DNA of 37,558 nt from Myxococcota bacterium (lineage in GTDB: Bacteria > Myxococcota_A > Polyangia > Nannocystales > Nannocystaceae). The notes below the pieces were generated by a model. That model was not told the DNA's origin. It was given only the letters and a program-made list of their open reading frames with translations, and did not search any database. A program made the position numbers and the translations under genes. Numbering within the stretch: position 1 is the first letter of the stretch; each line of letters starts with the position of its first letter. Location of the stretch: NCBI GenBank assembly GCA_039028615.1, contig JBCCHT010000070.1, positions 1 to 37,558 on the forward strand, in the 5' to 3' direction. This document shows positions 5,704-30,307 of this stretch, one piece after another.

Positions 5704-5775
5704 CCGCGGCCGGCCCGGCGTGCGCGGCTCAATCGGGCGCGCACGCCGGGTCGCTGGACAAGGGGGCGCTGGCCG

Positions 5776-6192
5776 TCAGCGAACGACCAGCACGCTGCAT
5801 CCGGCCCGATTGACGACCTTCGCCGCCGTGGTGCCCAGCAAGCGGTCGACGCCCCCGTAGCCGTGGCTCCCGATGACCACCATGTCGGCTTCGAGCTCCT
5901 CCGCGAGGGCCACCAGGGTATCGGCCGGTTGACCCATCCGAGTGACGATTCCGCCGCGGAGCGACGAGGGGATGCGCTCCGCCGACTTTTCCAGCTCTCG
6001 GTTGCCGTGCTCCACCAGGAACTTGGTGAGGTCGTCTCCCTGCATCGTCCACAAGGTGGTGGGCACGCTGAGGGGGATGGTCATGGCTCGCGCGAGCGTG
6101 AGCGTGCCCCCGCGGTCCTTGGCGAGGTTGATCGCTTCGTCCAGCACTTTGGGTTCGCGTGACGAGCCGTCGACTCCAACGAGGATCTTCAT
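5776..6192 (-). CDS. Universal stress protein (UspA family)
   Basis: KILVGVDGS...ADMVVIGSHG...LLGTTAAKVVNRAGCSVLVV. Confidence 0.95.
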   Translation of the reverse strand: MKILVGVDGSSREPKVLDEAINLAKDRGGTLTLARAMTIPLSVPTTLWTMQGDDLTKFLVEHGNRELEKSAERIPSSLRGGIVTRMGQPADTLVALAEELEADMVVIGSHGYGGVDRLLGTTAAKVVNRAGCSVLVVR

Positions 6193-6238
6193 GCTCTCTG
6201 CCTAAACACTGGGAGCAGGGCTCGCCACCCATGGACGC

Positions 6239-6253
6239 GCGCAAGGATTGCGC
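6239..6253. promoter_or_regulatory. Palindromic operator copy 1 (GCGCAAGGATTGCGC), upstream of the USP gene
   Basis: Inverted repeat 46 nt upstream of the USP start; the motif recurs at 7440, 7496 and 8925. Confidence 0.65.
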
Positions 6254-6262
6254 CCGGACGGG

Positions 6263-7390
6263 TCACACCTCGCGAGCGTCGTCGCGTCGAGGGAGCTCGA
6301 GCACGAATCGCGTGCCCCGGGTGGGCGCGGGCTCGTAGGTCAGCGTGCCGCCGTGGGCCTGGACGATCTGGAGCGCGACGGGCAGCCCGAGACCGGTGCC
6401 TTCGGTCTTGGAGGTGACGAAGGGCTCGAAGGGCTCGATGCCTTCGGGGATGCCGCTGCCCTCGTCTTGCACCTCGATGCGGACCCGCTGGGGGGAGTCG
6501 ATGACGCGCACGGTGAGCGTGCCGCCTTCGGGCATGGCGTCCGCCGCGTTCTTGATCAAGTTGAGCAGGACCTGCCGCAGCTTCTCGGTATCGATGAAGA
6601 TCGCCCGCAGCTGCGGCGGGACTTCGAGCCGAGCCTGGATCCCGCGGATGTTCAGCGCGGGAGTCTCGGCCGAGACCACGTCCCGCACCACGGTGACCAG
6701 ATCGGTCGGCGTCACGGAAAACTGGGGGCGACGCGCCAGCGATCGAAACTCGTCCAGGAGGTGACGCAGCCGCTGGGTCTGGGCGAGCAGCGAGCTCATC
6801 GAGTCGCCGATCTTCGGATCGACGCCGAGCTCGGACTTGCCGAGCCGCCGCTCCAGCAGCTGAGCGTGCATGTACATGCCGTTGAGCGGGTTTCCGACCT
6901 CGTGGGCGAAGCTGGCCGCCGTGGTTCCGACGGCCGCCAGGCGCTCGCGCTCGAGCAGGCGCTCTTGCAGGCTGACCTTGTCGCTGATGTCGCGAATGAA
7001 CGCGCCGTAGCGGGCCCGCTCGCCCACCGCGACCTCCGTGACGGAAAGCTCGATGGGGAAGATCTCGCCGTTGCTGCGGCGAGCGGCCACGGTGCGGATG
7101 CGGCCGATGGCCTGGGGCTCGCGGGTTTGCTCGTAGCGCTCGACGTAGCCGTCGTGCTCCGCCGCATAGGGCATCGCCATCAGCACCTTGACGTTCTGCC
7201 CCAGGATCTCGGGCGCGTCGTAGCCGAACATGCGCTCGGCGGCCTGATTGAAGAGCACGATGTTGCCCCGCCGATCGATGCAGATCACCGCGTCTCGGGT
7301 GGTCTCGAGCAGCTGCGCGTACCACCGCGCGCGGGTTCGGATCTCCTCGTCCGACGACGGCAGCTGGAAGTTGGAGTGGTCGTCGTCCAT
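6263..7390 (-). CDS. Cytoplasmic FixL-like heme-PAS sensor histidine kinase
   Basis: PAS segment LMAMPYAAEHDGYVERY..IGRIRTVAARRSNGEIFPIELSV matches the FixL heme pocket (proximal His in EHDGY). H-box FAHEVGNPL, N-box QVLLNLIKNA, DEGSGI, GTGLGL. No transmembrane segment seen. Confidence 0.9.
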   Translation of the reverse strand: MDDDHSNFQLPSSDEEIRTRARWYAQLLETTRDAVICIDRRGNIVLFNQAAERMFGYDAPEILGQNVKVLMAMPYAAEHDGYVERYEQTREPQAIGRIRTVAARRSNGEIFPIELSVTEVAVGERARYGAFIRDISDKVSLQERLLERERLAAVGTTAASFAHEVGNPLNGMYMHAQLLERRLGKSELGVDPKIGDSMSSLLAQTQRLRHLLDEFRSLARRPQFSVTPTDLVTVVRDVVSAETPALNIRGIQARLEVPPQLRAIFIDTEKLRQVLLNLIKNAADAMPEGGTLTVRVIDSPQRVRIEVQDEGSGIPEGIEPFEPFVTSKTEGTGLGLPVALQIVQAHGGTLTYEPAPTRGTRFVLELPRRDDAREV

Positions 7391-7439
7391 GGGACGGGGC
7401 TGGGCGCTCCGACCGTACCGCGAGTCGCCGTGGGGGCAC

Positions 7440-7454
7440 GCGCAAAACCTGCGC
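7440..7454. promoter_or_regulatory. Palindromic operator copy 2 (GCGCAAAACCTGCGC), upstream of the kinase gene
   Basis: 49 nt upstream of the kinase ATG (7390). Confidence 0.62.
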
Positions 7455-7495
7455 GACGGGGTCGAGAGCCCCGCTCCCGCCCCCTCGCTGGCGTC

Positions 7496-7510
7496 GCGCA
7501 AGATTTGCGC
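7496..7510. promoter_or_regulatory. Palindromic operator copy 3 (GCGCAAGATTTGCGC), upstream of the response regulator
   Basis: 51 nt upstream of the regulator ATG (7562). Confidence 0.65.
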
Positions 7511-7561
7511 GCAGGCTTCCATGGCCGGAGGCGACCCGCCCCCGCAGACTCACGACACGCC

Positions 7562-8899
7562 ATGTCTACGCCCCCGGCCGAGCCCAAAATCCTCGTCGTC
7601 GACGATGAAGCGACCGCGCGCTCCGCTCTCTCCGAGCTGCTGCGGGACGAGGGCTACGCGGTGCGGACCGCCAGCGATGGGTTCAAGGCCCTGGGTCATC
7701 TCGACGGCTGGACCCCCGATCTCGTGCTCACCGACGTGCAGATGCCGGGCATGAGCGGCGTGGAGCTGATGGCGAAGGTCCACGAGTCGCTCCCCGATGT
7801 GCCCATCGTGGTGATGACTGCCTTCGGCTCCGTGGAGAACGCGGTCACGGCCTTGCACGCGGGCGCCGACGACTACCTCACCAAGCCGGTGCACTTCGAT
7901 CAGATGTTGCTCGTCTTGCGGCGAGCGCTCGCCCGGCGTGAGCTCCACCGCGAAAACGAGCGGCTACGGGAGGCACTCGACGGGTTCACGGGCGAGATCG
8001 GCTGGGTCGGGAGCTCCAAGTCGTCGCGAGACTTCATGGCCTTGGTGCAGCAGGTCGCGGGCAACGACGCCGCCGTGTTGATCCACGGTGAGAGCGGCAC
8101 GGGCAAGGGGCTCGTCGCGCGGGCGCTGCACGAGGCGAGCGCCCGCGCCGAGGGTCCGCGGGTCGTCGTGCCCTGCGCGGCCATTCGCGAGGAGGCCTTG
8201 GAGGAGGAGCTGTTCGGTGAACGGGGGCGCTTGGCCGAGGCGCGCGGCGGCACGGTGGTGCTCGAAGGCGTCGGCGAGCTTCCGTCCACCGCCCAGGCTC
8301 GCCTGCTTCGGTTCATTCAGCAGGCGCGCAGCGAAGCAGGGGATGGCGGCGTGCGGATCGTGGCCACGACCGACCAAGAGCTGCTGCAGCGGGTCAAGGA
8401 CGGCCGTTTTCACGAAGACCTCTACTACCAGCTCAACGTCATCACCTTGCGGGTGCCAACGCTTCGCGAGCGCCGAGACGACATCCCGCTGTTGGCCATG
8501 CACTTCGTGCGTCGCCACGGGACCCGGGTGCGAGGGCTCTCCGATCGGGCGCTGGGTGTGTTGCTCGCCCACGACTGGCCGGGCAACGTTCGGCAGCTCG
8601 AGGCCGCCATCGAGCGCGCCGTGGCCATGTGCCAGGGGTCGGTCATCGAGCCCAAGGATCTACCGCGCGAGCTGCTGCGATCGGGAGGTGGTGACGACAA
8701 GATGCCCACCATTCCCGGGGCGACGATGGCCGAGCTGGAGCGCTACGCCATCCTCACCACGCTGCAGCACGTGGGCGGGAGCACCAGCCGGGCCGCCGAG
8801 ATCCTCGGCATCTCCACGCGCAAGATTCAGTATCGCCTCAACGAGTACCGCGAGCGGGATCCCTCGGGGGTCTCTGCGGTCATTCGAAGCGTGGACTGA
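7562..8899 (+). CDS. NtrC-family response regulator (REC-AAA+-Fis HTH) with degenerate sigma54-interaction domain
   Basis: ILVVDDE / LTDVQMPG receiver; GESGTGK Walker A; WPGNVRQL; AAEILGISTRKIQYRL HTH. GAFTGA is absent. Confidence 0.92.
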   Translation: MSTPPAEPKILVVDDEATARSALSELLRDEGYAVRTASDGFKALGHLDGWTPDLVLTDVQMPGMSGVELMAKVHESLPDVPIVVMTAFGSVENAVTALHAGADDYLTKPVHFDQMLLVLRRALARRELHRENERLREALDGFTGEIGWVGSSKSSRDFMALVQQVAGNDAAVLIHGESGTGKGLVARALHEASARAEGPRVVVPCAAIREEALEEELFGERGRLAEARGGTVVLEGVGELPSTAQARLLRFIQQARSEAGDGGVRIVATTDQELLQRVKDGRFHEDLYYQLNVITLRVPTLRERRDDIPLLAMHFVRRHGTRVRGLSDRALGVLLAHDWPGNVRQLEAAIERAVAMCQGSVIEPKDLPRELLRSGGGDDKMPTIPGATMAELERYAILTTLQHVGGSTSRAAEILGISTRKIQYRLNEYRERDPSGVSAVIRSVD

Positions 8900-8924
8900 G
8901 GCGCCGCAACGCTTTCGTCGCGCG

Positions 8925-8939
8925 GCGCAAATCCTGCGA
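8925..8939. promoter_or_regulatory. Palindromic operator copy 4 (GCGCAAATCCTGCGA), upstream of the small membrane protein
   Basis: 50 nt upstream of ATG 8990. Confidence 0.58.
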
Positions 8940-8989
8940 TCCCCGACCACGAGCGCAGCGGTCATGCTGATGGAGAAGGACACTCCACG

Positions 8990-9328
8990 ATGACCGAAAC
9001 GAGCGCCACCCCCACCCGTCGCAACCTGTCGCCTGCCCTGTCCAGCGCCATCATGGGAGGGCTTTTGGTGGGCTCCGCCGCTGCCGTGTTCGCGTTCGCG
9101 TTCATCGGGCCCCAGACCGGCTATGGCTTTGGTGGTTTCGAGGTACTGCTCGTCGGGTTGCTCGGTTCCGTCTTCGGCACGGTGGCGGGAGCGGTCGCGG
9201 GGGCATCGGAGACCGGCGAGGGCGAAGCGGTCGAGCTGCCTTCACCGCCGCGGGCCGCGAGCGTTGCGTATGAGGCACTGCCCGTCGAGGGCGTCGTGAC
9301 TCGCTCGTCGGCGGCTCAGTACACCTAG
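8990..9328 (+). CDS. Small hypothetical membrane protein (two Gly-rich hydrophobic helices)
   Basis: RBS-like GGAGAAGGA upstream; hydrophobic segments AIMGGLLVGSAAAVFAFAFI and VLLVGLLGSVFGTVAGAVAG. Confidence 0.65.
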   Translation: MTETSATPTRRNLSPALSSAIMGGLLVGSAAAVFAFAFIGPQTGYGFGGFEVLLVGLLGSVFGTVAGAVAGASETGEGEAVELPSPPRAASVAYEALPVEGVVTRSSAAQYT

Positions 9329-11432: not shown

Positions 11433-12161
11433 TCAGGTCATCTGATCGAGGTACTTGGGCAGCATCTCGCGCCAGGTCGGCCAGTCGTGGTCGTAGTCGG
11501 TGCCCCAGGGATCGACGCGGTTGGGCACGCCCATTCCGCCGAGCATGTTGGCGACGCGCCAGCTCTCGGCCGGACTCTCCCAGCGTCCCTCGCCGGTCGC
11601 GAGCAGCACGAAGCGCTCACGCAGCAGGGCCAGCTGCGGGCTCTCGCCGAGGCCGGGTAAGAAGTGCAGCGGCGAGCAGTAGTGGAAGTCGAGGGGATGC
11701 TCGCCGTTCATCCACCGCGACAGGTCGTAGGTGCCGCTCATGCAGATCGCCGAGCGGAACACGTCGGGGTGACGGCAGATCGCCGCGAGTGCATTGAACG
11801 CGCCGATCGACGCGCCCGCGGTGACGACCTCGATGTCGGGTGTCTTGCAGTCGGTGCGAATGGCGGGCACGAGCTCGTCGATGACGAAGCGATCGAAGGC
11901 GTTTTGGATCCGCGCCCGAAAAGCACCCGAGCTCGCGCCGTCGGTCCAGATGCGCCCCGCGACGCTGTCGCAGGTGTAGATCTTGACGCGACCCGCTTCG
12001 ATGAGAGGCATGAGCGCGTCGATCATCAAGAAGCGCTCGCACTCTTCGGCGTCACCGCCCGCAGTGGGAAAGAGCAGCACGGGCAGGCCGTAGTGACCCC
12101 AGCGTGCGACGAGCACCTCGGTGTTGAGATGCGGGGAGTACCAGCGGTTGGTGAGCTTCAC
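11433..12161 (-). CDS. Esterase family alpha/beta hydrolase (COG4947-like)
   Basis: WGHYGLPVLLFPTAGG, GASIG nucleophile, MSGTYD, HDWPTW. Confidence 0.88.
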   Translation of the reverse strand: MKLTNRWYSPHLNTEVLVARWGHYGLPVLLFPTAGGDAEECERFLMIDALMPLIEAGRVKIYTCDSVAGRIWTDGASSGAFRARIQNAFDRFVIDELVPAIRTDCKTPDIEVVTAGASIGAFNALAAICRHPDVFRSAICMSGTYDLSRWMNGEHPLDFHYCSPLHFLPGLGESPQLALLRERFVLLATGEGRWESPAESWRVANMLGGMGVPNRVDPWGTDYDHDWPTWREMLPKYLDQMT

Positions 12162-15085: not shown

Positions 15086-16396
15086 TCAGGCGGGCGGGAC
15101 CTGGTCGGGCGAACCGTCGGGGCTGCCTTCGCCTTTGCCGAGCCGGTCGGCCTCGGTCTTGCGCCAGAACTGGATGAGCCCCCAAAAGTGCTCGGTGAAG
15201 CGCTCGACCTCGTGCTCGGGGAACAGGGCCTGCACCTTGGCGAGCACGTGGCCCTTGGCCTGCGGCGTGCCGAAGAACTCCCACACGACCTCGTTGAGGT
15301 GGCTCAGGTGCGTGTGGCAGAACTCGGTGAAGCGATCCTGGTCGAGGCGCTTGCGGGCGATGGCCGCGTACTCGGCCAGGCGCTCGCGGTAGGGCAGGTC
15401 CTTTTTGGCGACGGCGTAAAAGGGCTCCCAGTCGAGGTTCTGCGGCATGGTGCGCTGGGTGGCGGCGCAGTAGAGCGACCACCGCACCATGTTCTTCACC
15501 ATCTCGGGGAAGTGGTAGTGCAGCGAGGTGACCTGGAAGTCGGGGCACGCGTTGGCGAAGTCGATGGGATGGAAGGTGCCGTTTTTGCGCAGCGACTCGC
15601 AGGAGTTGAACTCCCAGCCGAAGAACGCGTTGATGGTCAGCGCGGTGTCGGTGAGCAGCGACCACTCGTCGGAATCGACGAAGTGGAAGTCGACCTTGTA
15701 GCGGTCGTGCAGGGGCGCGCCGGGGTCGTAGCGCACGATGTGGACCTGGGGCCCGATGCCGATGGCGCGCACGAACAGGTCGAAGGGGTCGACCGCCTTT
15801 TGCAGGTGCATGACCCGGCTGCCGCTGTTTTCGTAGGCCTCGCGCAGCTTGGCTTCGTCGTCGATCTTCGACACGCCGACCCATGCCCCGCCGTCGTAGG
15901 GCTTCATGAACATGGGGTAGCCGAGCTTCTCTCCCACCGCGCCCAGGTCGAAGAGCCGGGCGTAGCGCTCGAGGGTCGTGCCGACGTCGTCGTGCTCGAC
16001 GTGCTCCTTGGGCGGGATGAGCAGGGTGTCGGGCACGGGCATGCCCAGCTTCATCATCGCGCAGTAGGAGGTGTGCTTCTCCATGGACTGCAGCGACCAC
16101 GGATTGTTGAGCACGTAGAGCCCGTCCATGATGACCGCCTTCTTGATCCACTCGCGGCTGGTGTGGAACCAGTGCGTGAGGCGGTCGAGGACGACGTCGT
16201 AGCGGCAGGGCTGGGTGAGCGTGAAGGGCTCGACGGTGACCCGCTCCACATGGAAGCGCACCAGCTCGTCGCCGATGGGCATCGCGGGCTTGAGCCGGTC
16301 GATGATCTGCTCGTAGCAGGCGGGCCAACAAAGGTCGGCCCCCAGTGAGAGTCCGATGGTGCGGGTGACCTCGGTGCGCGCGGGCATGGGGCTCAT
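15086..16396 (-). CDS. ATP-grasp ligase (RimK/glutathione-synthetase-like)
   Basis: GMPVPDT, GYPMFMKPYDGGAWVGVSKI, LQKAV, EFNSCE..PIDFANACPD. ATG 16396 overlaps the upstream stop (ATGA). Confidence 0.88.
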   Translation of the reverse strand: MSPMPARTEVTRTIGLSLGADLCWPACYEQIIDRLKPAMPIGDELVRFHVERVTVEPFTLTQPCRYDVVLDRLTHWFHTSREWIKKAVIMDGLYVLNNPWSLQSMEKHTSYCAMMKLGMPVPDTLLIPPKEHVEHDDVGTTLERYARLFDLGAVGEKLGYPMFMKPYDGGAWVGVSKIDDEAKLREAYENSGSRVMHLQKAVDPFDLFVRAIGIGPQVHIVRYDPGAPLHDRYKVDFHFVDSDEWSLLTDTALTINAFFGWEFNSCESLRKNGTFHPIDFANACPDFQVTSLHYHFPEMVKNMVRWSLYCAATQRTMPQNLDWEPFYAVAKKDLPYRERLAEYAAIARKRLDQDRFTEFCHTHLSHLNEVVWEFFGTPQAKGHVLAKVQALFPEHEVERFTEHFWGLIQFWRKTEADRLGKGEGSPDGSPDQVPPA

Positions 16397-17529
16397 TCGT
16401 AAACCATCCACAGTGGCCCGGGGAACAGGTAGGACAGCCCGGCCTGCATTCGATCGCGCCAGTTTTCCCAATTGTGACCGTCGCGGACCCACTCGTACCG
16501 GCAGTCCATGCCCGTGGTCTGCAAAAGCGGCACCAGGGACCGGTTTTCGTAGATCAGGGACTCGTACATCCCGCAGCTGAGGTAGACCTGCTCGCTGGGC
16601 CGGCCGGGGGCGTCCCGAAATGCATTGACGAACTCGACCACGCGGTCGAAGGCGGGCCCGCGCTTGTGATTGCCGATGTCGGTGAAGGCGAACGAGCCCG
16701 ATTGCAGCAGCAGGCGGCCGAACTTGCCCGGATGGCGCCAGGCGGTGGACAGCGAGGCGACCGCGCCGAAACTGGCCCCCATCAGGCCGCGGGTGGCGGG
16801 CGCGGGCATCAGCGGGTAGCGCTCCTCCATGGCGGGCAACACGTGCTCGGCCAGGAACGCGGCATGCCGGGGGTCGTCGGGGTACTCGATCATGCGGTCG
16901 CCCGGGTGGGTGAGCGCGGCGATGACGGGCGCGACCTCCAGGCGATGGATGAGGTTGTCGAGGATCTCCTTGAGCGCGGCGTAGCGCAGGTAGTCCCCGC
17001 CGTCGTGCACGATGAGCAGCGGGTAGCGGCGCGTAGGGCGGAATCGCGCGGGGAGATAGACGCTGACCCGACGGGGCTCCCCGAAGGGCGTCTCGGTCAG
17101 CCACAGGTCCTCGATGTGCCCCGGTCGGCTCTCGGGATCGGCGAAGGTCCAGTGGGGGCGCTCGTAGCCCGAGCCCGAGCACACCGAGTTGGCGCCGAAG
17201 GGGTCCTGGGCCAGGTGCGGGTTGAAGGGGTCGCGGATCCACTCGTGGTGGTCGCCGCGAACGATCTCCAGCTTGTACTCCACCCGCGAGCCGGGCGGCA
17301 TCTCGTGCACGTGGTACCAGAGGTCGGTGTCGTGCACGCGGGTGAAGGGCTGCGACGACTCGAGGCCGTAGATCCAGTGCCGCAGGTTCACCGCGTCGGC
17401 GTGGCCCCGAAACACGAAGGTGGCGCGGTCGCCCTCGATGAGGGGGAACGAGCGCTCGCGGATGAAGCCGCTGATCGCCTCGTGGTCGGGCGTGCCGCCG
17501 TCGAGCAGGTCGTGGATCGCGAGTCTCAC
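16393..17529 (-). CDS. Fes-like esterase with N-terminal E-set/CBM48-like domain
   Basis: ATFVFRG..DTDLWY..RVEYKL..DPFNP N-domain; VYLPA..YPLLIVHDG; GASFG nucleophile; GHNWENW. GTG 17529 overlaps the upstream TGA. Confidence 0.88.
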   Translation of the reverse strand: MRLAIHDLLDGGTPDHEAISGFIRERSFPLIEGDRATFVFRGHADAVNLRHWIYGLESSQPFTRVHDTDLWYHVHEMPPGSRVEYKLEIVRGDHHEWIRDPFNPHLAQDPFGANSVCSGSGYERPHWTFADPESRPGHIEDLWLTETPFGEPRRVSVYLPARFRPTRRYPLLIVHDGGDYLRYAALKEILDNLIHRLEVAPVIAALTHPGDRMIEYPDDPRHAAFLAEHVLPAMEERYPLMPAPATRGLMGASFGAVASLSTAWRHPGKFGRLLLQSGSFAFTDIGNHKRGPAFDRVVEFVNAFRDAPGRPSEQVYLSCGMYESLIYENRSLVPLLQTTGMDCRYEWVRDGHNWENWRDRMQAGLSYLFPGPLWMVYE

Positions 17530-18467
17530 GAGGCGGTGTCCTCCATGGGCACGACCTCGCCCGTGTAGGTGAGCTGGCGAGAGCGGGCGGCGTAGTTGCG
17601 GCCGTCCCACGACACTCGCTCGCCGCGATCGAGGGTGACGCAGCGGTCGGGCTTGAAGCGACGGGCGAACAGCGAGACCCGCTCCGCGTCGTCGAGCTGC
17701 AGCCGCTGTTTGGCGTGTGGTAGGACCACCAGCCCCGGCACGATGCCCAGGCCCTCGCCCAGCAGCTCTGCGTTGCCCTTGCCCTGCGGCGGGTTGTCGT
17801 GGAAGAGCACGACCCGCTCCGAGATCGCCATGGCGCCCGCCGACCACGCGAAGATGGGCAGCGGGCGGGGTAAGGAGGTCAGCAGGCGGTCGAACTGAAA
17901 CAGCCGCAGGCGGTTGAGCAGCGACGCGACGTGACCCCCTGCGATCAGCAGGCCGAAGCAGTTGCCCAAGATGGTCCGCAGCTCGCGATAGTGGTGGTCG
18001 ACCGCGGGCCGAGCGGTGGGGCGGTAGTGCAGCTCGAAGTCGCGCTGGATCTGCCGGGTGCGGCCCAGGTGCTGCTTGTCGACCAAGCGCAGCGCCAAGA
18101 TGGCCGCGTCGCGCTCCGTCTCGATGAGCTGCGGCGGCGCCGTGGACTGACGCATCTCACGGGCGGCATCGAGGGCGTGAGCCAGGCGACGGCGGTACAG
18201 CACCTGGCTGTGGCGCAGGTTGTCTTGCTTGGCGCGGTGGGCCGCGAACAGGTCGGGGTCGCGGGAGAAGACGTCGTCGCTCCGCCAATGTAAGCGCAGG
18301 TTCACGATCGGCATGCCGAGGTGATCCCGCAGCTCGCGGTCTTCCGCCTCGCGCTCCTGCCACCCCGCGGTGATCGTGGCCAAGGGCCCGGGGACCCCGA
18401 AGCGGGACAGCTCCTCGCGGATCGATGGTTGGTGCCGCTGAGGGCCGAGCAAGACGCCGAGGGTCAT
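17526..18467 (-). CDS. Peptidase S51 family (peptidase E/cyanophycinase-like, class I GATase fold)
   Basis: LLIAGGH, AWSAGAM (Ser nucleophile), GLGIVPGLVVLPH (His). Confidence 0.8.
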   Translation of the reverse strand: MTLGVLLGPQRHQPSIREELSRFGVPGPLATITAGWQEREAEDRELRDHLGMPIVNLRLHWRSDDVFSRDPDLFAAHRAKQDNLRHSQVLYRRRLAHALDAAREMRQSTAPPQLIETERDAAILALRLVDKQHLGRTRQIQRDFELHYRPTARPAVDHHYRELRTILGNCFGLLIAGGHVASLLNRLRLFQFDRLLTSLPRPLPIFAWSAGAMAISERVVLFHDNPPQGKGNAELLGEGLGIVPGLVVLPHAKQRLQLDDAERVSLFARRFKPDRCVTLDRGERVSWDGRNYAARSRQLTYTGEVVPMEDTAS

Positions 18468-18571
18468 GACGAAAGAGGTCCGGGTGGCTTGTCGGCAAAC
18501 CGCCGCGCGGCTACAAGGGCCTCGCCTTTTAGCCAACCCGCCTTGGCTGGGGCAAGGGAGCTTGGTTCGTC

Positions 18572-19792
18572 ATGCACGTGCTGTTCGTTGCGCCGCACTT
18601 TCCCGCGTACCAGCGGCAATTCGTTCGGGCCCTGACCTCGGTCGGAGCCCGGGTCACGGGGATCGGCGAGGCCGATCCGGCCCATCTTCCCGGCGAAATC
18701 CGCTCCCAGCTCCACGGGTACGAGCAGGTGAGCAACGTTTGCGACGAGCAGGCGTTGCTCGACGCGGTGCGCCGAGTGCAGGGCCGGGAGTGGGTCGATC
18801 GCCTGGAGGCGACCATCGAGGCCCACATCCTGCCGACAGCGCGGGTGCGCGAGCACGCCACCATCCCGGGTCTGTCGACTCACGCCGCCCTGCTGTGCCG
18901 CGACAAGCCCATGATGAAGGAGTTCTTGCGCAAGCACGGGGTGCCCTGCGCTCGCTCCACCGGGGCCGAGTCCGTCGACGAGGTCGAACAATTCGTACGT
19001 GAGGTCGGCTACCCGATCATCCTCAAGCCGCGCGACGGCGCGGGGGCCTCGGGCACCTACCGCGTGAGCAATGACGCCGAGCTGGGGGCGGCTCTGCGTG
19101 AGCTGGGCGTCGGTCCGGGTCGTTCCGTTGCGCTCGAGGAGTTCATCGAGGGCCACGAGGGCTTCTACGACACCCTATGCGTCGGTGGTCAGGTCGTGCA
19201 CGAGTTCGTCTCGCACTACTACCCCAACGTCCTCGAGGCCATGCGCACCCGCTGGATCTCGCCGCAGATCGTCGTGACCAACCGCCTCGACGAGCCTGGC
19301 TACGACGAGGTCAAGCGCCTCGGCCGCGACGTGATCACCGCCATGGGCCTGCCCACCGTGGCCACCCACATGGAGTGGTTTTACGGCCCCAAGGGCCTCA
19401 AGTTCTCCGAGATCGGCGCGCGACCGCCCGGCGTCGGGCAGTGGGATCTGTACTGCGCGGCCAACGAGATCGACCTGTACCGCGAGTGGGCCCACGCGAT
19501 CGTGCACGGCTGTGGCTCGCAGGTCGCGTCGCGCAAGTACTCGGCGGGGATCATCGCGCTGCGGCCCGAGGCCGACGGGCAGATCCGTGGCTACTCGGGG
19601 GTCGACGAGCTGCAGGCGAAGTTTGGGCAGTGGGTCATCGACTCGCACCTGCCCCCGCCCGGCACGCCCACGCAGCCCGTCGAAGCGGGCTACATGGCCA
19701 ATGCCTGGGTACGGCTCAAGCATCCCGACTACGACACGCTCCGCGAGATGCTCGATACGGTGGGGAAGACCATCACCGTGCACGCGGGCTGA
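18572..19792 (+). CDS. ATP-grasp domain protein (carboxylate-amine/L-amino-acid ligase-like)
   Basis: RDKPMMKE, GYPIILKPRDGAGA, EEFIEG, HMEWF, FSEIGARPPG. Confidence 0.92.
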   Translation: MHVLFVAPHFPAYQRQFVRALTSVGARVTGIGEADPAHLPGEIRSQLHGYEQVSNVCDEQALLDAVRRVQGREWVDRLEATIEAHILPTARVREHATIPGLSTHAALLCRDKPMMKEFLRKHGVPCARSTGAESVDEVEQFVREVGYPIILKPRDGAGASGTYRVSNDAELGAALRELGVGPGRSVALEEFIEGHEGFYDTLCVGGQVVHEFVSHYYPNVLEAMRTRWISPQIVVTNRLDEPGYDEVKRLGRDVITAMGLPTVATHMEWFYGPKGLKFSEIGARPPGVGQWDLYCAANEIDLYREWAHAIVHGCGSQVASRKYSAGIIALRPEADGQIRGYSGVDELQAKFGQWVIDSHLPPPGTPTQPVEAGYMANAWVRLKHPDYDTLREMLDTVGKTITVHAG

Positions 19793-28847: not shown

Positions 28848-28951
28848 ACGCCACCTGCACCTCGGCGAGCGGGTCGAGCCCAAACCAACGCGCGTGTCAC
28901 CCCCCGATCGAGGGGCGGTGATTGTCGTGCCGATCACCCACTGTGGTGATC

Positions 28952-30307
28952 ATGTCGGAAATCTACCAGCGCTTGTGGGATTCCGACGAGGATCGGCTCA
29001 CCGTCAGTCGGCGCAAGGCCGACGACGGCTGGGTGGACCCCTCGGCGGCGATCCTGCTCGATACCCAGACGAAGGCCCACGGCAACCCGGAGGTCGATCT
29101 CGCGGTTCGTCCGCTGTTTCACCACGTGGACGAGTCTCGGCTCGAGGCGCCGCTGTATCGGCACTTCATCGCGCTGCTGGACAACTATGTGGTGTCGGCG
29201 CGGGAGGCCGAGGAGGAGTCCAAGTACGAGCGGCAGGAGATCAACGCGTTCATCGATGCGGTGATGCAGACGCGGGTGGCTGCGCTGGGGCTGGCGTATA
29301 TCAACGAAGAACTCGGTGAGTCGCTGAGCAAAGGGGCGTTTCGGGCGGCGATCAACCGGCTGTGGTTCGAGCTTTACACCAATCACTACGGGGGACGATC
29401 GACCTCGTGGGCCTCGGGCTTCGAGCACGTGTTCGTAGGCGAAGGGAAGTACGACCGCCGTTTTGGTGGCGAGGAGACCATCGGCAAGATCACGGGCTAT
29501 CACAGCTGGATCAAGTTCTACCTGGACGAGAGCCGCCAGCGGGTCGACTTCCTCGGATACAATTTCGAGCTGCGCGGGGGCGAGGTGCCCGTAGTCCCCG
29601 ACGTGATCACGCTGAAGATGCGCTGGAACCATGCGGACATCACCGGGCGGGTGGTGGCGCAGCTGCTCAAGAAAAGGGGCGGGTTCTTCGTGGGGCCCAG
29701 CCCCGCGTGCGAGATCGTGATGGGGGTGGTGCTCTACTACGAGAGCCTGCACGGGCTGTTGGTGAGGGATCGGCGGCGGACGACGATTCACGGGCAGGAC
29801 TACGACCTGGTGCTCTATCGCAACACGACGCCCGAAGGCAGCCGCGGGGCGTTCATTCGATCGTTCTTTCCCATTGCGCTGTCGATGCAGCGGCGAGACG
29901 AGCACCACGAATCGGAGGGCAAGCCGGAGCCCGGGGACGATGATCGGCCGGTCGTGACCCGTATCGCACCCAAGGGGAACAACGACGGACGCGTGCAGAT
30001 CGCGGCGGTACGACCACGGCCAGACGAGGGCGAGTCGGCCTTCGTGCAGCTGCTCAACGCCGACGAAGCGTCGGTCTCACTCGACGGCTGGCAGCTGCGC
30101 GATCGGATGGGTCGCATCCTGCCGCTTCAGGGCCGGATCGCGAGCGAGGACAAGCGGACCTTCGTGGTGCCGGGGAGCAACGCGGGGCGCTTTTCGCTCT
30201 CGGGGCGCGGCGGGTTCATCTCGCTGCATGACGAGTGCGGCCTGGTGGCGGGCATCAATCACGGATCGGCGGGCCCGAACGAGATTCTGTATTTCCTCGA
30301 CGACTAA
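28952..30307 (+). CDS. EndoU/XendoU-family endoribonuclease with C-terminal lamin-tail domain
   Basis: SGFEHVFVGE, GYHSWIKFYLDE, KKRGGFFVGPSPACE. C-terminal FVQLLN..VSLDGWQLRD..LSGRGGFISLHD is an LTD pattern. Confidence 0.88.
   Translation: MSEIYQRLWDSDEDRLTVSRRKADDGWVDPSAAILLDTQTKAHGNPEVDLAVRPLFHHVDESRLEAPLYRHFIALLDNYVVSAREAEEESKYERQEINAFIDAVMQTRVAALGLAYINEELGESLSKGAFRAAINRLWFELYTNHYGGRSTSWASGFEHVFVGEGKYDRRFGGEETIGKITGYHSWIKFYLDESRQRVDFLGYNFELRGGEVPVVPDVITLKMRWNHADITGRVVAQLLKKRGGFFVGPSPACEIVMGVVLYYESLHGLLVRDRRRTTIHGQDYDLVLYRNTTPEGSRGAFIRSFFPIALSMQRRDEHHESEGKPEPGDDDRPVVTRIAPKGNNDGRVQIAAVRPRPDEGESAFVQLLNADEASVSLDGWQLRDRMGRILPLQGRIASEDKRTFVVPGSNAGRFSLSGRGGFISLHDECGLVAGINHGSAGPNEILYFLDD

Follow-up and report, generated by a model that had tools for sequence, protein, structure and literature searches.

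The stretch of DNA analysed here, called the window below, comprises the 37,558 nucleotides (nt) of contig JBCCHT010000070.1 from a Myxococcota bacterium of the family Nannocystaceae, and includes a compact module in which genes for a universal stress protein (usp), a histidine kinase, a response regulator and a small membrane protein are each preceded by a near-identical palindrome. A first-pass annotation had placed these palindromes at positions 6239, 7440, 7496 and 8925, lying 46, 49, 51 and 50 nt upstream of the usp, kinase, regulator and small genes respectively; all four are present there with the sequences given, and a recount from the start codons (ATG at 6190-6192, 7388-7390, 7562-7564 and 8990-8992) returned the same gaps. 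The palindromes are real, and are largely explained by a known system, that of NmpR in Myxococcus xanthus, from which the module departs in having a regulator without the GAFTGA loop and a kinase of the FixL type.

In its symmetric form the palindrome reads GCGCA-N5-TGCGC, perfect at three of the sites and with one mismatch at 8925. We rejected the possibility that this is a new motif, as it is identical to the box shown by electrophoretic mobility shift assays and lacZ fusions to be bound by M. xanthus NmpR (McAllister et al. 2025; PMC11841059); both the motif and its role in hypoxia had been published for NmpR, which the first-pass annotation did not recognise. According to that study NmpR, whose system is induced by hypoxia, activates nmpU, the cbb3 operon and the usp gene mxan_3966 besides its own operon, also binds the promoter of hemN-hemerythrin, and requires a sigma54 site for activation of mxan_4236; its sites are paired, mostly 14-15 bp apart, and the unphosphorylated protein still binds DNA (PMC11841059). 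NmpS is reported as the only kinase phosphorylating NmpR (PMC6211767), and oxygen is described as switching NmpR off in two steps, through a relay from the protoglobin NmpU to NmpS/NmpT (PMC11841059, PMC6211767). The reference nmpR used here comes from M. xanthus AM003, which is not the strain of the paper; it was retrieved with a published primer and has D54 and V87 in register. The palindrome had also been set apart from the FNR/FixK box (TTGAT-N4-ATCAA), and we likewise rejected that identification: no match with fewer than two mismatches occurs in the window, and the sole two-mismatch match of the module falls inside the kinase gene.

The exact pattern matches six times in the window, at four places of which two are counted on both strands, compared with a mean of 0.12 and a maximum of 2 in 100 shuffles; allowing one mismatch leaves a weak excess (8 against 3.39 expected) that is equalled in 4 of 100 shuffles. 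There are 50 perfect copies of GCGCA-N5-TGCGC in the 12.27 Mb genome, four of them intergenic, and three of these four lie inside the module. The raw genome-wide count is not enriched, other spacer lengths yielding 3-19 intergenic perfect matches, and since other spacers match as often, the signal lies in the clustering of the sites and not in their genome-wide number. Scored by a weight matrix built from 34 sites of other genomes, the 7496 site ranks highest in the genome (Table 1), and a site scoring at least 15 stands 30-70 nt upstream of 6 of the 9531 called genes, usp falling outside these six with a mis-called start. Of 56 held-out relatives of the regulator gene, 47 have a site no more than 260 nt upstream, as against 1.7% of the genes of this genome (score at least 10, within 300 nt). 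The held-out set began as 60 loci, of which 57 returned rows and 56 have the helix-turn-helix (HTH) motif; Loci L150, L156 and L157, together with the second copies at L159-L164, stand outside these rows and were examined separately. Weaker sites (scores 10.5, 10.5 and 13.3) precede the small-gene homologues in all three cases examined, and the possible second box of Table 1 has weak counterparts, likewise offset by 21 nt, in G002 and G005.

The regulator has the architecture of NmpR, a receiver (REC) domain, an AAA+ domain and a Fis-type HTH, and keeps the phosphorylatable aspartate D58 together with K108. Its DNA-binding end is 72% identical to that of NmpR over 50 amino acids (aa), and as an NmpR-type HTH it scores 72 bits; the runner-up in the genome reaches 44, and no second NmpR-type HTH was found there (the genome is 96.7% complete, making a missing copy possible but unlikely). 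When NmpR is compared with the genome by full-length BLAST the regulator ranks only eighth, because its AAA+ domain is decayed. The nine remaining NtrC-type regulators of the genome separate from it, with support of 98/95, in a tree of 44 proteins; placement of the regulator in the NmpR clade appears moderately supported, since these nine paralogues are long branches. Sequence searches against solved structures return only generic NtrC-family matches, and an AlphaFold model (pLDDT 76.9, pTM 0.58, 6-row alignment), which has three domains and no L1 loop, adds nothing beyond the alignment. The palindrome is very probably the operator of this regulator, as had been supposed, in what would be an autoregulated, oxygen-responsive module.

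Twelve residues are missing after position 220 of the regulator, which deletes the L1/GAFTGA loop; Walker B reads EG instead of DE at 235-236, with loss of its glutamate, and both switch arginines are replaced (H284 and Q290), with Walker A retained along with D58 and K108. These losses, at the sigma54-contact loop and in the ATPase residues, are the main oddity of the module and had gone unremarked in the first-pass annotation. Regulators of the NmpR type occur in 64 of the 73 genomes of the family, where GAFTGA is intact in 24 of 87 copies and not intact in 63, and the window regulator is among the most decayed. As read off the tree, with no ancestral reconstruction, the motif would have been lost on at least four branches.

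The genome encodes RpoN. It has no paired NmpR sites, none of its 110 intergenic sigma54-like boxes has an NmpR site upstream, and no sigma54 box was found near the four sites; a role for the site as part of a sigma54 promoter was rejected, there being no usably placed GG-N10-GC between site and start. The sites at 7440 and 7496 lie 41 nt apart, compared with 5-24 nt in bound promoters. In the control, from Myxococcaceae and other families, a partner site is present at 30 of 34 sites and a sigma54-like box at 24 of 34. A site together with a sigma54 pattern is found in 24 of the 73 family genomes, versus 4 for a reversed control: 8 of 11 genomes of genus g10 have it, a genus in which 10 of 11 keep the loop, as do 7 of 11 genomes of genus g17 (six of these with an extra intact copy), and 5 of the 31 genomes of those genera whose fetched copies are without GAFTGA.

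We note two arrangements among the relatives. In the six g17 genomes, L159-L164, the extra cassette consists of an NmpR-like gene that is intact and a paralogue that lacks GAFTGA and has a sigma54 promoter, and in five of the six a protoglobin domain is seen joined to an NmpS-type kinase core. At L070:2909-3842 and L087:2664-3607, where GAFTGA is intact, an RpoH-like sigma gene of the module has paired boxes and a perfect sigma54 promoter, and the adjacent genes for usp, CBS and the regulator are preceded by single sites that lack a sigma54 promoter; a sigma cascade and a dual-mode regulator are possible there.

The near-equal distances from site to ATG appear to hide two promoter geometries. 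We measured offsets in nt from the site to the start of a putative -10 hexamer; YAnnnT at offset 23 or 24 was spotted in 13 of 51 directions at the discovery loci, and the offset was then fixed for the held-out loci. There the hexamer occurs in 12 of the 47 promoters of regulator genes, against a shuffle mean of 1.6, and YAnnnT in 8 of 51 single-site directions (shuffle mean 1.5, maximum 7) and 0 of 7 paired ones. When discovery and held-out loci are pooled and near-duplicates removed, AnnnT stands at 23/24 in 26 of 85 single-site directions (shuffle mean 4.6, maximum 15) and in 0 of 19 paired ones. A hexamer at this offset would put the centre of the site at -42/-43. An ATG at offset 34-37 is found in 12 of the 85 pooled directions, the fullest bin, and nine of these 12 have the hexamer, which amounts to a leaderless geometry. 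Genome-wide, TAnnnT peaks 12-16 nt before ATGs, with 129 at -13 against a background of about 25 and 9 at -11; such promoters are therefore common in the genome, and the peak suggests that many transcripts may be leaderless or have short leaders.

The kinase and small-gene promoters fit the 23/24 class, and so does that of hemF, at which three of six genus genomes preserve the site, the spacer, TATnGT and the GTG. The usp promoter is laid out differently and in the same way in all five genus genomes examined: the site, 11 nt, TRGCGM, 17 nt, TAnnnn and then the ATG, which begins 6 nt past the -10 (8 in one genome). This would centre the site at -54, one helical turn further than -42/-43, and with the -10 ending 6 nt before the ATG a leaderless transcript is likely. 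The window's regulator promoter has the same spacing from its site as the usp promoter, unlike same-genus regulator promoters, which use offset +23/24. The centres near -42/-43 appear firmer than the -54 class, and most single sites in the family fit neither spacing clearly. No consensus sigma70 promoter was found in the module, as expected for activator-dependent promoters; the site itself was rejected as a -35 element, its TTGCGC lying at least 22 nt from the putative -10, which is too far.

Table 1. Genes, NmpR boxes and putative promoter elements of the module (window coordinates).
Feature	Position	Strand	Remarks
Universal stress protein, 138 aa	5776..6192	-	Pfam Usp, E 8.7e-28; G-2X-G-9X-T motif at residue 108
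FixL-type heme-PAS histidine kinase, 375 aa	6263..7390	-	H79, R85 and R99 in PAS; phospho-His 163
NmpR-clade response regulator, 445 aa	7562..8899	+	REC (D58/K108), AAA+, Fis-type HTH
Glycine-rich membrane protein, 112 aa	8990..9328	+	No Pfam or NCBIfam match
NmpR box for usp	6239..6253		Score 17.3; putative centre -54; kept upstream of usp in G002-G005
NmpR box, kinase gene	7440..7454		Score 19.1; putative centre -42
NmpR box, regulator gene	7496..7510		Score 21.0; putative centre -54; predicted autoregulation
NmpR box, small gene	8925..8939		One mismatch; score 15.9; putative centre -43
Possible weak second box	8904..8918		21 nt upstream of the 8925 site
Putative usp -10 (TAGGCA)	6199..6204	-	Offset +35; TA there in all five genus genomes examined
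Putative usp -35 (TGGCGA)	6222..6227	-	17 nt from -10; T-R-G-C-G-M at +12 in 5 of 5 examined
Putative kinase -10 (TACGGT)	7412..7417	-	Offset +23
Putative regulator promoter	7522..7550	+	TGGCCG (7522-7527), 17 nt, CAGACT (7545-7550)
Putative small-gene -10 (CATGCT)	8963..8968	+	Offset +24

The PAS domain of the kinase matches FixL structures best (E 1e-26), and its H79, R85 and R99 align with H200, R206 and R220 of the FixL heme-PAS (proximal His, distal Arg). Among the 120 matches listed, 50 are homologues shorter than 420 aa; all 50 have H79 and 49 have R99. The helix after His163 resembles that of NmpS, the kinase core is 38% identical to NmpS as against 29% to NmpU, and the adjacent regulator is of the NtrC type and is not a FixJ. 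Homologues of the kinase are present in Paraliomyxa miuraensis and a Nannocystaceae bacterium, both at 68%. Neither a protoglobin (NmpU) nor an NmpS-like gene was found in the 96.7% complete genome, no search being aimed at NmpT. The FixL-type kinase occurs in 15 of the 73 family genomes, nine without an NmpS-like match at the threshold and six with both; the four genus relatives all have it next to the regulator or close by, and G019 has two sensors, each adjoining its own copy of the regulator. FixL kinases are active in the deoxy form, and a FixL-type kinase that is active in this form would act with the same polarity as the M. xanthus relay, in one step.

The best match of usp in M. xanthus AM003 (35%) is the locus with near-exact copies of both mxan_3966 probe primers, and that locus has paired NmpR sites. 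The 112-aa protein has no usable Atlas feature match; homologues of 51-60% stand beside the regulator in G002, G005 and G017. The predicted targets are the four module genes, a tandem-USP/CBS operon whose weak site is kept in 4 of 5 relatives, and hemF, with a site kept in 2 of 5; an LDH-like gene, the gene for an 884-aa protein and a globin gene are weaker candidates, and the regulon in this genome looks small. The first-pass annotation had led us to expect sites at high-affinity oxidase genes, which did not materialise: no ccoN was found in the genome, there is no site upstream of its cydA, and a weak one is seen in 1 of 27 cydA loci, so that a large regulon with oxidases was rejected. No hemN match exceeds the cut-off, and the single COX1 operon of the genome has weak or intragenic site matches only. 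An M. xanthus-type regulon with cbb3 and hemN was thus not found here (hemerythrin was not searched for), the usp target being shared.

Some of these loci can be described further. The LDH-like gene is followed by a tandem USP gene and then by that of a CBS protein (G000:C2:475355-477925, L043); the LDH-like gene and the tandem USP gene each have a site in front. The 884-aa protein (G000:C11:258858-261512, L044:6859-9510) has a strong site 49 nt upstream of its gene and no Pfam or NCBIfam family; the Atlas hints at HTTM-domain proteins, and in G013, G019 and G017 the regulator or kinase has a homologue of this protein, at 51-55%, as its neighbour. The globin (G000:C36:119392-119897, L045) is single-domain, with a weak site (11.6) 65 nt upstream.

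With restrained confidence, we are inclined to think that the module couples a low-oxygen kinase through a phosphorylated regulator, which would act much as VpsR does, to the activation of sigmaA promoters. When oxygen falls the FixL-type kinase would be turned on and would phosphorylate D58 of the regulator, and the phosphorylated dimer would then activate weak sigmaA-type promoters through contact with polymerase, acting from single sites whose centres would lie near -42/-43 or -54. DNA binding and the sensing of oxygen, with its direction, are what we infer by analogy with the NmpR and FixL literature, and comparative spacing points to the sigmaA promoters and their positions; activation, as the direction of the effect, is the least certain part.

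Several observations weigh against this account. Promoter geometry cannot separate activation from repression. The 12 of 47 held-out regulator promoters with the hexamer are strongly weighted by kinship, six coming from one genus and four from another; the side without a gene start still shows the hexamer in 4 of 51 directions; after clustering it is found in 8 of 43, below the shuffle maximum (9) when any offset is allowed; and about 70% of single-site directions have no hexamer at 23/24. The -54 class consists of five related usp promoters and the window's regulator promoter and is diffuse family-wide, the usp -10 lacks a T at -7, and the TA of the kinase -10 is kept at that offset in only 1 of 4 relatives. 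Genus g15 keeps GAFTGA in 5 of 8 genomes, yet has site plus sigma54 in only 1 of 8, and one same-genus genome has a good site plus a sigma54 box. The distal loop of the PAS domain reads AIGRIR, versus IIGIGR in FixL; the kinase core shares no more than the 38% identity with NmpS given above, and the tree leaves sisterhood with NmpS unresolved. Among the weaker targets, the site is kept in 0 of 3 orthologues of the LDH-like gene and in 0 of 4 of the 884-aa gene.

The main rival has the same regulator at the same operator repressing sigmaA promoters, with the kinase signal relieving or tuning the repression. This strikes us as rather unlikely, although it has precedents in B. abortus NtrX, which is without GAFTGA and represses (PMC6158489), and in M. 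xanthus PexR, a repressor at a sigmaA promoter and an activator at sigma54 ones (PMC12754779). Unphosphorylated NmpR binds DNA (PMC11841059), single sites also occur at the regulator's own promoter in relatives that keep GAFTGA intact, and a site ending at -35/-36 could block polymerase. A repressor would not need fixed spacing, however, and a sharp peak is seen at 23/24 before the -10; promoters without consensus elements seemingly offer little to repress; PexR sites overlap promoter and start, whereas those here lie upstream; and M. xanthus NmpR activates usp. Activation might instead proceed through an alternative sigma70-family factor, RpoH-like rather than sigmaA. An RpoH-like sigma gene does lie in or beside the module in several relatives, two of them with the paired boxes and perfect sigma54 promoter, and at usp the -10 (TAGSCA) departs from the standard TAnnnT; but in this genome the RpoH-like gene is on another contig with no site listed for it, most of the putative -10 elements fit the genome's common TAnnnT class, and we regard this route as improbable.

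We also give little credence to a signal other than oxygen (NO, CO, redox), or to a kinase that is not the partner of this regulator. A distal loop unlike that of FixL, a score of 207 bits against the NCBIfam FixL cut-off of 850 and the failure to find an oxidase or hemN target in the genome would fit another signal, and another partner is suggested by the six genomes of one genus that carry both this kinase and an NmpS-like gene; on the opposite side stand the near invariance of the proximal His and of the equivalent of the oxygen-gripping Arg, the proximity of kinase and regulator in every genus relative, the nine of 15 kinase genomes without an NmpS-like match, and the pairing of each G019 sensor with its own regulator copy. 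That a sigma54 route persists through another activator, the local protein being only a decoy or partner, we consider very improbable: RpoN is present, and six g17 genomes pair a GAFTGA-less copy having a sigma54 promoter with an intact one, but this nearly complete genome has revealed no second NmpR-type HTH, no paired sites and no sigma54 box near the four sites.

The module is a variant rather than a plain member of the NmpR type, with operator and output alike and neither sigma54 wiring nor NmpU/NmpS counterparts found. It shares with NmpRSTU the operator, a near-identical recognition helix, sites at the regulator's own gene and at a sensor gene, a usp target and a presumed low-oxygen output. 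It differs in a regulator without GAFTGA and with decayed ATPase motifs, where NmpR is a sigma54 activator; in single sites and no sigma54 box, where M. xanthus has pairs 14-15 bp apart; in a FixL-type heme-PAS kinase, where M. xanthus has the relay from protoglobin NmpU to NmpS/NmpT; and in that cbb3 and hemN were not found in the genome. Activation by way of sigma70 has been described for Vibrio cholerae VpsR, which has no GAFTGA, an altered Walker B and a site from -31 to -53 (PMC6158489), and NtrC of R. capsulatus and Caulobacter are further sigma70-using precedents (bioRxiv 2023.06.06.543975). The window regulator is like VpsR in being a REC-AAA+-HTH protein without GAFTGA, in its non-consensus Walker B and in the predicted position of its sites; its operator is another one, its sensor is of an oxygen type, its use of sigma70 is a prediction, and, unlike the VpsR type, it has intact-loop relatives surviving in the same family, where the loss was apparently repeated. 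It may also be likened to other atypical enhancer-binding proteins that use sigma70, namely TyrR, HupR, PhhR, NtrX and M. xanthus HsfA besides the two NtrC proteins. With rhizobial FixL-FixJ the module has in common a heme-PAS kinase that keeps the proximal His and distal Arg, and differs in an NtrC-type partner as against the LuxR-type FixJ, in an NmpS-like kinase helix and in having no FixK/FNR box. One dimer site centred near -42 recalls the class II promoters of FNR/CRP, where the site is centred at -41.5, and Fis at proP P2, although the protein family and sequence are different and the analogy is functional only. Fis is named as a class II activator at proP P2 in the title of a reference given in PMC4784862.

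No description of this GAFTGA-less NmpR/FixL-type variant was found in the literature searched, which did not cover subscription journals, and the change of sigma factor and sensor is apparently unreported so far. Few enhancer-binding proteins are known to use sigma70, according to PMC6158489, where they are proposed as a link between two sigma classes. We offer only tentatively the idea that one family holds living intermediates on the way from a sigma54 enhancer-type oxygen regulator to an FNR-like sigmaA activator: an intact-loop NmpR would have acted in dual mode, with sigma54 at paired sites and sigmaA at single sites near -42, loop and ATPase would then have been lost at least four times, and here a one-step FixL-type kinase would have taken the place of the double-negative NmpU-NmpS relay, the polarity staying the same. 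The sigma switch is directly testable, since M. xanthus NmpR provides an experimentally characterised ancestral state, one family contains both intact and decayed versions, and the operator has not changed. The module would also represent a second way for myxobacteria to sense oxygen, with a small hypoxia regulon predicted for the group.

Gene order across window positions 5776-8899 differs from that in the same-genus loci L061, L062 and L064, where the kinase and usp genes are divergent with one site between them and the regulator comes after usp; in the window, unlike these, usp lies behind the kinase gene and has its own site. A GC-rich inverted repeat at 5714-5751, between converging peptidase and usp genes, has no T run and is a possible two-way terminator. 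Elsewhere in the window, two unassigned genes, an esterase and an ATP-grasp protein are clustered at 15086-19792, with a second esterase at 11433-12161, and positions 28943-30307 (+) encode a 454-aa protein with a XendoU/EndoU endoribonuclease domain (PF09412, E 1.4e-51), a family known mainly from eukaryotes.

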